Shown here: positions 4,207 through 13,172 of the stretch, in pieces
Position numbering within the stretch: position 1 is the first letter of the stretch
Layout: the number at the start of each line of letters is the position of its first letter
Virus genome (UHGV): UHGV-1737584
DNA: 15,092 bases
Strand: one strand, 5' to 3'
Origin: a virus
The notes under the pieces: generated by a model
The model's input: the letters and a program-made list of their open reading frames with translations, nothing else
Told to the model about the DNA's origin: nothing
Database searches by the model: none
Position numbers and translations under genes: made by a program

Positions 4207-4562
4207 AGCACCACGTCCTGTGTGATAGTTATATCCCTGATACGAATGGATATTTTCAACTTATCAAAAGCATCTCCCTCGGCTACTGACAAGCCAGAAA
4301 TCGGTATGTCAGGTAAATCTACCGTCAGTTTTTGCAACAGCATTGCCTCAACCGCAATTTGAACATGCGACAAGTTGGTCGGTTCGTGTTTAAACTGCGG
4401 TAAAACATTGCCCCATGACGGATCTCCGTATACCTCACCCTGATAAGTGTTTAGCCACTCATATAAACGAGCGCCCCAGGCCTCCTCCTGGGACTCATAC
4501 GTTTTTACGCCGGATAACTCCAGCGTCAGCAAAGGATCAATTTCGTTATTGTTGGCCATCAA
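4203..4562 (-). CDS. 119-aa small structural protein, possibly baseplate wedge (gp25/W-like size class)
   Basis: Complete ORF; start overlaps the stop of the Sit-like gene (4559-4562) and its stop overlaps the next start. Assignment by size and synteny only (P1 pmgA by position). Confidence 0.5.
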   Translation of the reverse strand: MMANNNEIDPLLTLELSGVKTYESQEEAWGARLYEWLNTYQGEVYGDPSWGNVLPQFKHEPTNLSHVQIAVEAMLLQKLTVDLPDIPISGLSVAEGDAFDKLKISIRIRDITITQDVVL

Positions 4563-7500
4563 TCAACTCTCGCGTAGTCATTCATCAACGGATCATCAAT
4601 TGACAGTGGTACCGTGCGCATAACGCCCGGCTGAGGCGTGCTGACCTTTACGACAGTTCCCTGGCCTTTCGCCGAGTCTTTGGTGTGCTCTTCAATCCTG
4701 GCAAGCAATGAGGTCATCTGCGCAAACAGCCGCTTCGTTTCACCATCAAGTGAAACGGTATTATCAGCCAACTGCATTGTCGGCTTGGCACCGGAGCCAC
4801 CAAGGTCACTAATAACCTGTCCGTCTATCTGCATACGACCGGTTGGTTGCTGCAAATCGTTGGCGGCAGTCGTCACCTGGGACGTGGAGGCTGGTTCAGG
4901 CGCATTATTTTTCCGCATCCCCGGCGAGTTGCGGAGTTTATCGAATAGTCCATCAATCCCCATTTGTGCGCCGAGCTGGTCAAAGTAACTTGAGTTGTTG
5001 GCCACCGGACGCGCTTCTTCAACTGGCATCGGGGTATCAACATACACATTACCAGCTGCTGTTGCGGTCCCCTTCCCTCGTGCACGTTCTTCTAGCGTTC
5101 CCTGAACGACTTCCCGACGCATCCCCCGGCCATTCATGAATTTGTTGACCAGATCGTTAACGCCAACAGCATTGCCGATTTTGTCGACCAGACCGCCTTT
5201 CTCAAACGGGCTATCACCAGGGGTAAACGCCAAGCCAGGGGTAAACGCCAAGCCAGGGGTAAACGCCAAGCCAGTATACTGATCGATAACGGCGTTATCA
5301 GGCAGTGGTCCCCTCACTCCATATTGCGCCCCACCCTGTGCTCCTGCCCCAGGTGTATAGATTTCACCACCTAAATAGCGAGCACGATGAGTATTGACCT
5401 TGATCGCGTACTCACGGTTTTCCTTCGATAAGTCACCGGTGCCTTTTTTCCACTTATTAATAGTGCCAAACCCAGCGTTATATGCAGTGATGGCCTCGTT
5501 TAAGTCTCCATTGGCTTGCTTCAGATACTTGCTCATGAGAAGAGCCGCAGCTTCTGCCGATTTCACAGGATCAAACGATTCACCTTCAGCTAAGCCAGTC
5601 TCTTCACGAGCAATGCCCGTGAACTGAAACATTCCTAGAGCACCAGTTTGGGATTTTGCGTATGGATTACCACCAGATTCAGTTGCAGCAATCGCGTAAA
5701 GAGTGCCTTCAGGAAGACCATATTTATTCTCTAGTTCAGCAAAATACGGAGCTAACTTATCGAGATTTGCCTTACCTTCAGCGCCAAGGCTTCCGACTTT
5801 TACATCTAAGTTGCCATTATTGTAGGTATCAGCAGCTTTCTGAATGTCATTCCCAGTGCCGGTGGTATTACGCGACGATGATGACGAGCTATTTTGACCA
5901 ATAGCTTTATCAATTTTCTGCAACGCGCGATTGCCCGTTTCTACGGCATTTGCATTGATAATCTGATTGGCAGTTTGTTTAACTGTTTTATTGCTATCTT
6001 TCGCTGTGTCCAGTGCCGCATTTATCACGCGGGTAGCAATATTACTCTGTTTGGCATCGGATTCAGTTTTAGAATTAGACGTCTCCTGGTGGCTATTAAC
6101 CGGAGCTTTTAACTCTGGAGTGATTTCTTTCGCATTAGCCTCGCCGATCGGATTGGGTATTTTTGATACAATCATTGCCGCAGGGGTATTTTTAACGGCA
6201 TCAACCGCTGCATCTAATGCTTTACCGGGTAAATTTTTAACCCCATCCCAAATATTACCAGCCGCCTCTTTAATGTGTTTCCCTGGGTTCTTAATGAAAT
6301 CAATTGCACTATCAATTGCATCACTGAAAACCTGTTTCAGGTTATCGACAGTAAAGAAGTCTTTGATGGCATCCAGCTTTTCAAGCAGCTTATTAGATGT
6401 ATCGCTAAACCATGCTGAAACAGCATCACCAATCTTTGCTGTGTAATCATCGAACTTGGTAGAAATCGTGTCGCCAAGGTTAGAAATATATGTTTCTAAG
6501 TTGGTAATCCCACTATCAATGGCCTGGGCAATACTTTCCGTCGAAAATGATTGCAACATATTGCCGATATCCTCAAATCCAAGTGATTTGAGAACCTCAC
6601 CAATGGCGCTGCTAATACCAGATACAAGCCCCCCCATATCAAGAACATTAGCTAACGTATAAGCGGCTTTTTGCTGGAATGATGGATCTTGTCCTGATTT
6701 AAGCCCAAACGCTCGACGTTGCGCTTCTGTATCATTCCAACCGGTTACCGCATCATAAATACCTCCAGCCACTGTGCCGACCAGGGGAATTGCGCGTAAC
6801 GCCCCTTTACCAACTGCCTTTAATCCAAGTTTACCTGCTGCCCGGGCAGCCAAATCTCCGCCTTCATGGGCGAGAGTCTTCTTGCCACCACCGCGTAGCA
6901 TTCCTACAAGTTTCTTTGCCCCCAGAGCGCCAAAAGCGAGTGCTCCAGCTTTTTTCAGCATGCCACGCCCCATTAACAACGACGCGACGCCACCGGCCCC
7001 CTTCCCTAACAGGCTAAATAATTTGGACAGCAAGCCGCCCTTCTTTTTCCCGGTGTTTTTGGCTATCTGATCAAGGGCGCTGAGAATCTTGTCATTGCCC
7101 TCTTTAATTTCGCTGGTCTGCTCCTGAAGTTCCTGAACCGTCCGTTTTTGGGTGTTAACCTGAACGACATCGGCACTATTTTGCGATTTACGCCTAAAAA
7201 AACCTTTTCTACGGCTGTTATCGTCATTGCCACGAATCACATCGGCAATAGACTTTCTGGCACCATTAAGCGATCCACCAACTTCTTTTGATATCCCGCC
7301 AAGCTCCTTCCCTGCGGCCCACAATGGACCAGCAACGGCATAACCTAACGCATCGACGGCACGAGTCTCTGAAGGGTTACCTATGCCTTCAGCTACTTTT
7401 GACAGTTTTTTTAATAAACCTGATTCAGCATTTAGACGCTCATCATCCTCTTTGCGCCTGTCCTTTTCAGCACGTTCAGCACGGGCATCTTCCGCTGCGG

Positions 7501-7987
7501 CCTTACTCCCTGACTTTCCAATAAAACGACCACGCGCATCGCGTTGGTTTTGGCTTTTTTGCGCACCGTCTTTTTGACCGAACATTTCGCGAGCGTGTTC
7601 GGCTGCTTCGGTCCGTTGCGCCTTTACATCTTCTGTTATAGCCTTCTTGCGTCGTTTTTTACCCTTTCGCGTAGTTGATTTGGCCTGCGGTTCCTGTAGA
7701 GCAACATCCTCCTGAACTACACGAGAAACGTCCCCTAAATTAAGCCGTTTCATTGCCTCAACAATAGGGTCCACTGATGGCGCATTGGCCACAAAGTCTG
7801 GCTGGGAATTTTCGATTGTGCGATTTAATGCCGACACACTGCGAGAGACAGGATCAACTGTAGCAACTCGCCCCCCTTTCAAATCTTCAACGGCTTCCCG
7901 AATACCTGCAAGCTCTTCCAGCTCTTTTGCGCTGGCGGTTTCAACCGTCCTTATCACATCGTCAATGTTGGCGTTTTTTCTTTCCAT
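4559..7987 (-). CDS. sit: Structural injection transglycosylase / tape-measure-like protein, 1142 aa, with soluble lytic transglycosylase (SLT) domain
   Basis: Longest ORF in window. Contains GLPEGTLYAIAATESGGNPYAKSQTGALGMFQFTGIARE (aa ~760-800), the family-1 lytic transglycosylase motif with catalytic Glu-Ser (Glu codon at complement 5678-5680). N-terminal part is K/R/E-rich, followed by a Gly/Ala-rich hydrophobic glycine-zipper segment (aa ~300-420). P1 Sit is about 1140 aa as I recall. Confidence 0.9.
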   Translation of the reverse strand: MERKNANIDDVIRTVETASAKELEELAGIREAVEDLKGGRVATVDPVSRSVSALNRTIENSQPDFVANAPSVDPIVEAMKRLNLGDVSRVVQEDVALQEPQAKSTTRKGKKRRKKAITEDVKAQRTEAAEHAREMFGQKDGAQKSQNQRDARGRFIGKSGSKAAAEDARAERAEKDRRKEDDERLNAESGLLKKLSKVAEGIGNPSETRAVDALGYAVAGPLWAAGKELGGISKEVGGSLNGARKSIADVIRGNDDNSRRKGFFRRKSQNSADVVQVNTQKRTVQELQEQTSEIKEGNDKILSALDQIAKNTGKKKGGLLSKLFSLLGKGAGGVASLLMGRGMLKKAGALAFGALGAKKLVGMLRGGGKKTLAHEGGDLAARAAGKLGLKAVGKGALRAIPLVGTVAGGIYDAVTGWNDTEAQRRAFGLKSGQDPSFQQKAAYTLANVLDMGGLVSGISSAIGEVLKSLGFEDIGNMLQSFSTESIAQAIDSGITNLETYISNLGDTISTKFDDYTAKIGDAVSAWFSDTSNKLLEKLDAIKDFFTVDNLKQVFSDAIDSAIDFIKNPGKHIKEAAGNIWDGVKNLPGKALDAAVDAVKNTPAAMIVSKIPNPIGEANAKEITPELKAPVNSHQETSNSKTESDAKQSNIATRVINAALDTAKDSNKTVKQTANQIINANAVETGNRALQKIDKAIGQNSSSSSSRNTTGTGNDIQKAADTYNNGNLDVKVGSLGAEGKANLDKLAPYFAELENKYGLPEGTLYAIAATESGGNPYAKSQTGALGMFQFTGIAREETGLAEGESFDPVKSAEAAALLMSKYLKQANGDLNEAITAYNAGFGTINKWKKGTGDLSKENREYAIKVNTHRARYLGGEIYTPGAGAQGGAQYGVRGPLPDNAVIDQYTGLAFTPGLAFTPGLAFTPGDSPFEKGGLVDKIGNAVGVNDLVNKFMNGRGMRREVVQGTLEERARGKGTATAAGNVYVDTPMPVEEARPVANNSSYFDQLGAQMGIDGLFDKLRNSPGMRKNNAPEPASTSQVTTAANDLQQPTGRMQIDGQVISDLGGSGAKPTMQLADNTVSLDGETKRLFAQMTSLLARIEEHTKDSAKGQGTVVKVSTPQPGVMRTVPLSIDDPLMNDYARVD
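5217..5274 (-). repeat. Perfect tandem repeat, 3.2 copies of an 18-bp unit (CCAGGGGTAAACGCCAAG), encoding (LAFTPG)x3 in the Sit-like protein
   Basis: Read directly: copies at 5217-5234, 5235-5252, 5253-5270 plus a partial CCAG. In frame; translates to TGLAFTPGLAFTPGLAFTPG just C-terminal of the SLT domain. Confidence 0.95.
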
Positions 7988-10233: not shown

Positions 10234-10773
10234 CTACCACCAACTGCTAGCTTTCTTCTCTCTAGCTTTTCCTTCGCTTTGCAGTAAATCTTTACTTCCT
10301 GTAGAAATATTTCTATTTGCATCAGCCTCAGACTGAATTACATCTGTCTTAGCTGCTCTCTCCTTCAACTCCTGCTCTATAAAATCGTTTTCTCGCTGGA
10401 CACGAGCCGCTTTTGCTTGCAGTTCGAGTTTCATGCTTTCGAGTTGCAGCTTGCGAAGCTCATCCTCATAAGCTTGATCTCGCTTCTTGTCATTTGCTAG
10501 CTCGGCTTCTCGTTTCGCTCTACGTTCATTTTCTGCAGCAACACGCTGTTTTTCGCGTGCAGCAGCGGCAGATGCTGCTTTTTCTCTTCTAATACGTTCA
10601 GCTTGTGCTTGTTGGCGAATAAGTTCTTTTCTGGCATCCTCAGCTTGCTGCTCTTTAGCTCGCCCTTCATTTTCCGCTTGAGCAATAGCAGCAATTTGAC
10701 TTTGCAACGAGTTAGCCAAGGCAGTGCCTACACTAAACGTAGAAAAGATTAGAAATAAAATAATTTTATTCAT
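10234..10773 (-). CDS. Exported (signal-peptide) coiled-coil protein, 179 aa, TolA-like charged helical repeats
   Basis: N-terminus MNKIILFLIFSTFSVGTALA is a classic Sec signal peptide. The mature part is a highly charged Ala/Glu/Arg/Lys/Gln-rich predicted coiled coil ending in SSWW. Lies in the P1 sim-locus position. Confidence 0.75.
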   Translation of the reverse strand: MNKIILFLIFSTFSVGTALANSLQSQIAAIAQAENEGRAKEQQAEDARKELIRQQAQAERIRREKAASAAAAREKQRVAAENERRAKREAELANDKKRDQAYEDELRKLQLESMKLELQAKAARVQRENDFIEQELKERAAKTDVIQSEADANRNISTGSKDLLQSEGKAREKKASSWW

Positions 10774-11634: not shown

Positions 11635-11663
11635 TTGACCTTTTAATCGTTCAGGCTTATAGT
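11635..11663 (+). promoter_or_regulatory. Near-consensus sigma70 promoter TTGACC-17 nt-TATAGT, candidate constitutive promoter for the c4-icd-ant transcript
   Basis: -35 at 11635-11640, 17-nt spacer, -10 at 11658-11663. Lies ~120 nt upstream of the structured RNA and has no operator-like sequence over it. Confidence 0.6.
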
Positions 11664-11783
11664 TTCGCCGTCGTAGCAAATTCTGCGACCGGGTTTAGCA
11701 GCCTGAATGATTGTGCGGACAGCCGCAGATATCCGATATTGCGGTATTTTTGTGTCCGTAAAACCGCGTTACGCCCAAATTAT

Positions 11784-11860
11784 GGTGGGGCGTGATGGGG
11801 AGGCTTCGGCCTGCTGGTTTCACAATCGCCAGTCTGCTAACCCCGTCACGTCCTGCCACC
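11784..11860 (+). ncRNA. c4: c4-like antisense repressor RNA, ~77 nt, structured
   Basis: Nested stems read from sequence: GGUGG (11784-11788) with CCACC (11856-11860); GUGAUGGGG (11792-11800) with CCCCGUCAC (11841-11849, one G-U); internal GGC-UUCG-GCC tetraloop hairpin (11802-11811). Single-stranded segments are complementary to downstream sites at the icd RBS. The 77-nt span matches the reported length of P1 c4, but I chose the ends knowing that length. Confidence 0.55.
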
Positions 11861-11910
11861 TGTTTAGCAGCGGGTAGCAGGTTGTTAAACCTGATTGTGA
11901 GGCCGTAACT

Positions 11911-12132: not shown

Positions 12133-13172
12133 AAAAACCTCTCGTCACCCGTAATGAAATAGCCGAAGCGATCGCCCTGCATACAACCTGTATGCCGACA
12201 CGGGAGATCCCCGGCGCAATTGCCAACTATTTCATGATAACCAGACGTTTTTATACCCGAACAGATAAGGCTGTGATCAACAAGCTACTGATAGCCGAGA
12301 TCAGGGATTATTTGATTGAACAAGGACGTCTACGTTACGCAACAGTGGCAGCAGAAATGAGAAAGGAGGCACATAGAATGACCGGTAATAATTTGAATGT
12401 TGAAAAACCAGCACCTGTTGCTTCAGCTACGCCATCACCAGCTGTGAATGTTATCTCCAACACTGGAGACACAATCGACAGCCAGACACTGTTAAAGATG
12501 GTCAATGAAGCTCGTAAGTTATGTGGGGAACCAGAGGTTCGGAACAACAAATTCATCGAAAAAATACTCGACGAATTAGAAGGTGAGGACGGTTACACAA
12601 AAAGTGCAACCGTGCCGCCAGGTGGCGGTACGCCTATGGTTGTCATAACCATGACCTACAAACAAGCCCTGCGAGTCGCCGCGCGCGAGTCAAAAGCGGT
12701 CCGCCGTTCGCTGATCGACAAACTGGAAGAATTACAGCAGGCAAACTCCCCTACCCCATCGATCCCCCAGACATTACCAGAAGCCCTACGCCTGGCTGCC
12801 GAGTTAGCAGAACAGAAAATGCAGTTGGAACAACAGCTGGTGGCCGCAGCCCCTAAAGTCGATTTTGCCGACCGGGTATCAGTGGCCAATGGAATCCTGA
12901 TCGGGAACTTTGCAAAGGTCGTTGGACTTAAGCAAAACGCCCTTTTCTCATGGTTGCGCCAGAATGGCATTCTCATGGCTTTTGGAGCGCGCAAAAACGT
13001 ACCGCGCCAACAGTACATCAACGCGGGGTATTTCACGGTGAAAGAAGTGGTGCTGGATGATGAAAATGGCTACCAGATACGGCTGACGCCCCAATTAACG
13101 GGTAAAGGCCAGCAGTGGTTAACTCGCAAGCTACTTGATGCTGGTTTGTTAAAACCAGTAGCAATAGGTTAA
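12129..13172 (+). CDS. ant1: Antirepressor Ant1, 347 aa, with C-terminal ANT/KilA-C type domain
   Basis: Strong SD AGGGGG upstream of the ATG. C-terminal ~130 aa (LPEALRLAAELAEQ...GKGQQWL...LLDAG) is the phage antirepressor C-terminal domain and is paralogous to the KilA C-terminus in this window. Confidence 0.85.
   Translation: MKKPLVTRNEIAEAIALHTTCMPTREIPGAIANYFMITRRFYTRTDKAVINKLLIAEIRDYLIEQGRLRYATVAAEMRKEAHRMTGNNLNVEKPAPVASATPSPAVNVISNTGDTIDSQTLLKMVNEARKLCGEPEVRNNKFIEKILDELEGEDGYTKSATVPPGGGTPMVVITMTYKQALRVAARESKAVRRSLIDKLEELQQANSPTPSIPQTLPEALRLAAELAEQKMQLEQQLVAAAPKVDFADRVSVANGILIGNFAKVVGLKQNALFSWLRQNGILMAFGARKNVPRQQYINAGYFTVKEVVLDDENGYQIRLTPQLTGKGQQWLTRKLLDAGLLKPVAIG
12378..13172 (+). CDS. 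ant2: Nested in-frame antirepressor Ant2 (264 aa) from an internal start
   Basis: Internal in-frame ATG at 12378-12380 preceded by a consensus SD AAGGAGG at 12364-12370. P1 is known to make Ant1 and Ant2 from in-frame overlapping starts. Confidence 0.6.
   Translation: MTGNNLNVEKPAPVASATPSPAVNVISNTGDTIDSQTLLKMVNEARKLCGEPEVRNNKFIEKILDELEGEDGYTKSATVPPGGGTPMVVITMTYKQALRVAARESKAVRRSLIDKLEELQQANSPTPSIPQTLPEALRLAAELAEQKMQLEQQLVAAAPKVDFADRVSVANGILIGNFAKVVGLKQNALFSWLRQNGILMAFGARKNVPRQQYINAGYFTVKEVVLDDENGYQIRLTPQLTGKGQQWLTRKLLDAGLLKPVAIG

Follow-up and report, generated by a model that had tools for sequence, protein, structure and literature searches.

The sit gene of a P1-like phage carries three perfect tandem copies of an 18-nt unit, encoding (LAFTPG)3, at a site where every relative surveyed has a single copy. 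We think it likely that this array is a genuine and very recent in-frame tandem amplification, private to one lineage, which took the unit from one copy to three by slippage or template switching and which is neutral or slightly deleterious. The DNA analyzed here, called the window throughout, is a 15,092-nt stretch taken as a whole. It is one entire short-read scaffold from a gut-type metagenome (ENA ERZ28570791, BRIT16-1_SAMN02333919_METAG-scaffold_2122), the only contig on record that encodes the exact three-copy Sit protein. The features discussed below are located in Table 1.

Table 1. Window coordinates of sit, of the parts of its product, and of the repeat array
Feature	Position	Strand	Description or basis
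sit	4559..7987	minus	1142 aa; P1 structural injection transglycosylase, putative tail tape measure protein
SLT lytic transglycosylase domain, aa 748-857	5417..5746	minus	PF01464, E=5.6e-27
Variable G/P-rich linker, SLT to C-terminal module, aa ~875-895	5303..5365	minus	Alignment with relatives
Conserved C-terminal module, aa ~896-1142	4562..5302	minus	Alignment with relatives
18-nt unit array, 3 perfect tandem copies	5217..5270	minus	TRF and direct reading
Upstream CTGG tetramer, partial copy	5271-5274	minus	TRF's extra 0.2 copy

Genomic setting of sit

By its sequence, the window is assigned to a P1-like phage of the genus Punavirus. It is ~98% identical to P1, P7, and RCS47 (98.0% for RCS47), its ORFs are collinear with the RCS47 annotation and with the genes called on the source contig, and it covers the P1 tail/baseplate and immI/repL regions in the order S', R, 16, bplA, pmgA, sit, pmgB, tub, pmgC, followed by c4-icd-ant, kilA, and repL. 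Within the tail/baseplate operon, sit is 95.6 to 98.3% identical in nucleotide sequence, over 99 to 100% of the gene, to its counterparts in P1, P7, RCS47, JL22, and Ro157c2YLVW. At the amino acid level, the product is 96.5 to 98.6% identical over its full length to Sit of P1, P7, and RCS47, and the PHROG Sit family phrog_2533 matches it at 2416 bits. Full-length similarity, the position between pmgB and pmgA, and the SLT domain all mark it as a P1-type Sit. It shares with Sit of P1, P7, and RCS47 the gene order pmgB-sit-pmgA-bplA-16-R-S, the SLT domain, and the C-terminal module, and differs from all three in having LAFTPG three times rather than once (+12 aa).

A second length difference, this one within the SLT domain, distinguishes the window from P1 and RCS47. 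A 30-nt indel (window ~5645-5651) encodes the 10-aa segment TLTRSPNGKL, which P1, RCS47, and MH422554 have and which the window, P7, JL22, Ro157c2YLVW, and SJ46 lack, indicating that the SLT enzyme domain exists in two length forms.

Several further features of the window were recorded. Its left scaffold end (window 1-~50) lies inside the constant part of the tail-fiber gene S and adjoins the cixR crossover site of the invertible C segment, as placed from the features under the M81956 match; this end is probably an assembly break caused by heterogeneity in C-segment inversion. Rfam models locate the C4 antisense RNA at 11778-11863 (+; 69.6 bits) and the C4 a1/b1 target element at 11657-11709 (+; 54.6 bits), in the known P1 immI region upstream of icd-ant. 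At 12591-12609, ant1 shows an in-frame 9-nt length difference from RCS47 (5+4 nt in the alignment), and its ORF is 347 aa in the window versus 344 aa in RCS47. TRF also found a perfect 9-nt x2 repeat at 7466-7483, within sit, and a 15-nt x2.4 repeat with 85% matches at 10423-10456, in a DUF5384 gene.

The repeat array

TRF describes the array, at 5217-5274, with a period of 18, 3.2 copies, 100% matches, 0 indels, and a score of 116. On the coding (minus) strand, the unit is CTTGGCGTTTACCCCTGG, repeated three times over window 5217-5270, and the context reads ACTGG-(CTTGGCGTTTACCCCTGG)x3-TGATAG; the CTGG at 5271-5274 repeats the unit's final 4 nt. No difference separates the three copies, and each is of the GGC-TTG form. 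They are in frame in sit, with the codon register offset by 1 nt from the 18-nt unit, and are translated as ...DQYTG-LAFTPG-LAFTPG-LAFTPG-DSPFEKGG..., with G(LAFTPG)x3 at Sit aa 906-924 and (LAFTPG)x3 at aa 907-924, the first Leu being aa 907. Forty consecutive bases match the base 18 nt upstream, which by our own arithmetic has a probability of ~4^-40 per position and period, and the array is therefore not explicable by chance: the expectation in a 15-kb window is negligible, below 1e-17.

A perfect 18-bp x3 repeat in sit encoding (LAFTPG)3 had been reported in the first-pass annotation, and TRF, direct reading, and ORF translation agree with it. The repeat and its location stand as described there; what that account left unstated is that gene and peptide are read from the minus strand. 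In the window's ORF list, the only long ORF spanning the array is the minus-strand 4559..7987, and no plus-strand ORF of >=60 aa crosses it; coding of the array on the opposite strand was set aside on this ground.

Copy number among relatives

One copy of the unit was found in every relative, comprising 21 phage, 441 plasmid, and 455 E. coli genome records and 81 IMG/VR contigs. P1, P7, RCS47, JL22, Ro157c2YLVW, MH422554, and phi456 each have exactly one, and SJ46, whose Sit is 88% identical, has a single GLAFTPG. The plasmid and E. coli records were obtained with a 191-nt query centered on the array (441 plasmid records; 455 records in 453 complete E. coli genomes), for which all top-ranked matches, in both collections, were 155 nt long, that is, 191 minus 36, or one copy. 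With a query restricted to the array and 4 nt of flank per side, a two-copy allele would match 44 nt and rank first; at most 26 nt, one unit plus flanks, was matched in plasmids and E. coli.

Searches for the junction between copies gave a similar picture. The copy-to-copy junction, with known variant positions allowed, had no match in IMG/VR, GTDB (one genome per species), or JGI metagenomes; the 81 IMG/VR contigs carry the single-copy allele. A codon-degenerate FTPG-LAFTPG junction, accepting any synonymous codons, likewise had no match in IMG/VR. Outside IMG/VR it had five, none of them Sit-related, in Caldilineaceae, Limnochordales, and Akkermansia MAGs and two metagenome contigs; these were ruled out as Sit relatives, since they are GC-rich, low-complexity DNA that resembles Sit nowhere else. 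Judged from these comparisons, the three-copy state appears to be private to one contig, a singleton among about a thousand sit genes, where a thousand is an upper figure for independent genomes given that the plasmid and E. coli collections overlap.

The first-pass annotation had proposed comparing copy number across related phage genomes, and had reasoned that three synonymously diverged copies in all relatives would indicate a conserved structural motif. We find the opposite, with one copy in all relatives and three in the window only. The same result speaks against its suggestion that this is a locus of variable copy number.

A related explanation is that the array is a programmed, hypervariable repeat of the contingency type, by which the properties of Sit would switch often within a population. 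Such loci work through perfect tandem repeats, and slippage should be frequent once three copies exist. However, the 18-nt unit is 6 codons and never shifts the frame, leaving no on/off switch of frame or expression; copy number does not differ between related genomes among the phages, plasmids, E. coli genomes, and IMG/VR contigs; and the single copy of the ancestral state is not prone to slippage. We consider this explanation exceedingly improbable. Given the lack of both a frame switch and polymorphism among relatives, the array locus is, on present comparisons, best regarded as neither a contingency nor a VNTR locus.

Two kinds of annotation irregularity were seen among the relatives. In 813R1 (ON470617.2) and 673R5 (ON470615.2), the unit is 17 nt, with C5 shortened to C4 (ACCCCTGG to ACCCTGG), and the annotation breaks sit into several pieces, probably because of homopolymer errors in sequencing and not because the genes are real pseudogenes. 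In phi456 (OR339795.1), sit is annotated as ~3.7 kb (20592..24287), with a 5' end longer than in other punaviruses, and its match to the window starts only at query position 103. This could reflect an alternative N terminus or a difference in annotation.

Because the three-copy protein comes from one contig, a short-read metagenome scaffold, and no second sequence in five collections has even two copies, an artifact of assembly or sequencing has to be weighed. The phage in the sample might have one, two, or more than three copies, with the assembler having misjudged the number of repeat cycles; assembler k-mers shorter than the array cannot fix that number. Yet a single-copy template has a self-similarity of 4 nt (CTGG) and would make no k-mer cycle, so that at least two copies should be real, while the exact number could be miscounted. 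The 58-nt array is also shorter than typical Illumina reads, and spanning reads can settle the number. In addition, the rest of the contig has no frameshifts and no other tandem duplications relative to RCS47, with few small indels besides the 30-nt SLT indel, and all P1 genes are intact. Altogether, we regard an artifact or miscount as unlikely, and proceed with a genuine amplification as the preferred reading.

Origin of the amplification

Single-copy relatives read ACTGG-(18 nt ending CTGG)-TGATAG; in all of them, the unit ends in CTGG, and CTGG also stands directly before it. This 4-nt microhomology falls exactly at the duplication boundaries. Microhomology at duplication boundaries is the usual signature of tandem duplication by slippage or template switching, and it is from this feature that we infer slippage as the most likely mechanism. 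Replication slippage or template switching between the two bracketing CTGG tetramers would yield two copies, and a further slippage, now between perfect direct repeats of 18-22 nt, would yield three. Alternatively, a single multi-step template switch may have carried the locus from one copy to three. The amplification adds 36 nt and 12 aa relative to the single-copy relatives.

Perfect direct repeats are prone to slippage, and those of 18-22 nt should gain or lose copies much more easily than a sequence with the ancestral 4-nt microhomology. Hairpin-assisted slippage was considered and rejected: the repeat DNA has no hairpin potential, the region folding worse than shuffled controls (z = +1.88).

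The array has what is expected of a recent duplication by slippage or microhomology, namely, perfect copies, an ancestral single copy bracketed by CTGG, and absence from relatives. It resembles in this the microhomology-mediated tandem duplications and slipped-strand mispairing of bacteria and phages, with a short direct repeat (CTGG) bracketing the ancestral segment and with perfect copies. Compared to ordinary slippage duplications, nothing about it is distinctive; going from one copy to three needs two steps or a multi-step template switch.

The variants of the unit give some indication of when and where this happened. Among the 81 IMG/VR contigs, the form is GGC-CTG in 59, GGT-CTG in 11, and GGC-TTG in 10; rarer changes are GCG to GCA (2 contigs) and Leu to Met (one). 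Since variation in the single-copy unit is mostly synonymous (GGC/GGT, CTG/TTG, GCG/GCA), the LAFTPG peptide is under purifying selection across the P1 family. The GGC-TTG form of the window copies is also found in RCS47. Identical copies, all of this form, point to an amplification within an RCS47-type lineage, too recent for substitutions to have accumulated. The idea that perfect identity reflects recent amplification, already put forward in the first-pass annotation, is supported by the single-copy relatives, the identity of the three copies, and their sharing of one lineage's synonymous variant.

A substitution adjoining the array, Ser904Tyr (window 5277), seemed private in comparison with eight phages and was considered as a mutation made together with the duplication. 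The A variant is present in 4 of the 81 single-copy IMG/VR contigs, and the substitution is therefore unrelated to the duplication.

Position of the repeat within Sit

The repeat (aa 907-924) follows the SLT domain, ~10 residues into the C-terminal module and beside the variable linker. In the window, the SLT domain contains the catalytic-motif region ATESGG...GALGMFQF. The G/P-rich linker that follows differs in both length and sequence among relatives and adjoins a mosaic junction; SJ46, for example, has 5 additional aa between the SLT domain and the motif. The GLAFTPG-DSPFEKGGLVDKIG block then forms the N-terminal edge of the C-terminal module. In relatives down to ~52% identity, this block is conserved as GL(A/T)F(T/A)PG-(D/E)(S/N)PF(E/K)KGGL(V/I)DK(I/L)G...GVNDL...KF and is single-copy, and the stretch preceding it is variable in length. 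The conserved block starting GLAFTPGDSPFEKGG is intact in the window Sit, and the extreme C terminus of Sit is almost invariant among the aligned relatives. A search for homologues of the post-SLT region gave 16 cluster representatives, mostly partial, in which conservation of the motif is visible and which are too few for a deep alignment. Against the PHROG Sit profile, which is 1130 positions long, the window protein aligns with a break at aa 912.

Two homologues, P0007 (from E. coli) and P0011, have a mosaic Sit; compared with window aa 740-1142, they are 39-44% identical in the SLT domain and 11-12% in the linker, and they have a P1-like C-terminal module. In P0007, identity is 39% in the SLT domain and 12.5% in the linker, and then 90-100% from PDNAVIDQST onward. 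This jump places a module boundary ~10 residues upstream of the LAFTPG motif, and the mosaic implies that SLT modules have been exchanged at this junction.

AlphaFold models were made of the segments from the SLT domain to the C terminus, aa 740-1142 of the window protein (three copies) and the corresponding part of P0003 (one copy). Over aa 740-874, which contains the SLT domain, pLDDT is 80-94, and both models are confident; from ~aa 875 onward it is <50 in the three-copy and one-copy models alike, with 10 aligned sequences only. The models weakly suggest that the post-SLT region is flexible and may act as a "flexible tether."

Probable consequences for the protein

Sit is treated as the P1 tape measure protein (TMP) and is found in virions; its size, the position of its gene, predicted helices, and virion proteomics underlie the assignment (PMC9024508). 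A helical structure is predicted for the N-terminal ~750 residues, which have been proposed to be the ruler, and the SLT domain, at ~750-900, is thought to replace the T4 gp5-type lysozyme (PMC9024508). Sit is not resolved in the P1 cryo-EM structure, which has 53 sheath rings (PMC12810830). In our searches of the Pfam, NCBIfam, and PHROGs libraries, no TMP-family model covering Sit was matched.

It had been suggested at the outset that repeat number might alter the length or the flexibility of a tape-measure-like protein. An effect through length finds little support: the repeat is C-terminal of the SLT domain, outside the proposed ruler of ~750 residues, and 12 additional residues would span ~1.8 nm if helical, by estimate less than half a tube ring. 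For these reasons, an effect of the additional 12 aa on the number of tail rings seems unlikely. A change in flexibility or tether length is possible.

Because the duplication is in tandem, the motif still meets its native upstream neighbor through one copy and its native downstream neighbor through another. The net effect would be a tether ~12 residues longer between the muralytic SLT domain and the presumed baseplate-anchoring C-terminal module. Given that native context is kept on both sides and that the insertion is at an indel-tolerant edge, it is probably tolerated, and the three-copy Sit is probably still functional.

One can also envision a selected variant, in which the extra 12 aa give the SLT domain a longer or looser tether to the baseplate-anchored C terminus, or add about one tube ring to the ruler if the segment is extended, and so alter, for a particular host, how the envelope is penetrated or how long the tail is. 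Changes in TMP length shift tail length in other phages (PMC5099701, PMC3271669), the insertion adjoins a linker that tolerates indels, as in SJ46, and 12 residues that are fully extended and taut would reach ~4 nm, close to one ring by our own estimate. Still, the allele occurs once among the sit genes surveyed and has neither recurred nor spread there; its copies are undiverged, so it has not been long-lived; and the site is outside the predicted helical ruler (PMC9024508). Selection of this kind seems to us quite unlikely. The three-copy allele, as far as its distribution and sequence indicate, is most likely neutral or slightly deleterious and transient.

Relation to other tape measure repeats and significance

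Duplications and deletions are a recognized mode of TMP evolution (PMC5099701, PMC3271669, PMC13585406). The TMP repeats of siphophages (TP901-1 TMP, mycobacteriophage TMP units) are like that of the window in being in-frame duplications of a short unit in a TMP gene. Those repeats belong to the helical ruler, have diverged, and are common to lineages, whereas the repeat in the window Sit is a 6-aa unit placed after the muralytic domain, perfect, and private to one genome.

In our assessment, the triplication is a new allele of a well-known gene, real but ordinary, and beyond the record of one private in-frame expansion in a well-known phage gene, it matters little. If reads showed heterogeneity in copy number, it would serve, on a small scale, to illustrate how slippage plays out naturally in a phage-plasmid. 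That the triplication is adaptive or actively unstable, with a longer tether or about one ring of extended chain changing envelope penetration or tail length, we hold to be very unlikely; if true, it would offer a naturally occurring way to study the arrangement, within the tail, of the P1 tape measure and the lysin fused to it.

The survey also shows that the LAFTPG site is otherwise strictly single-copy across the P1 family. The motif stands where the conserved C-terminal module of Sit starts, behind a variable linker and an SLT domain that can be exchanged, and the site would be a reasonable spot for tags or for changes in linker length that probe the tape measure-lysin organization of P1.
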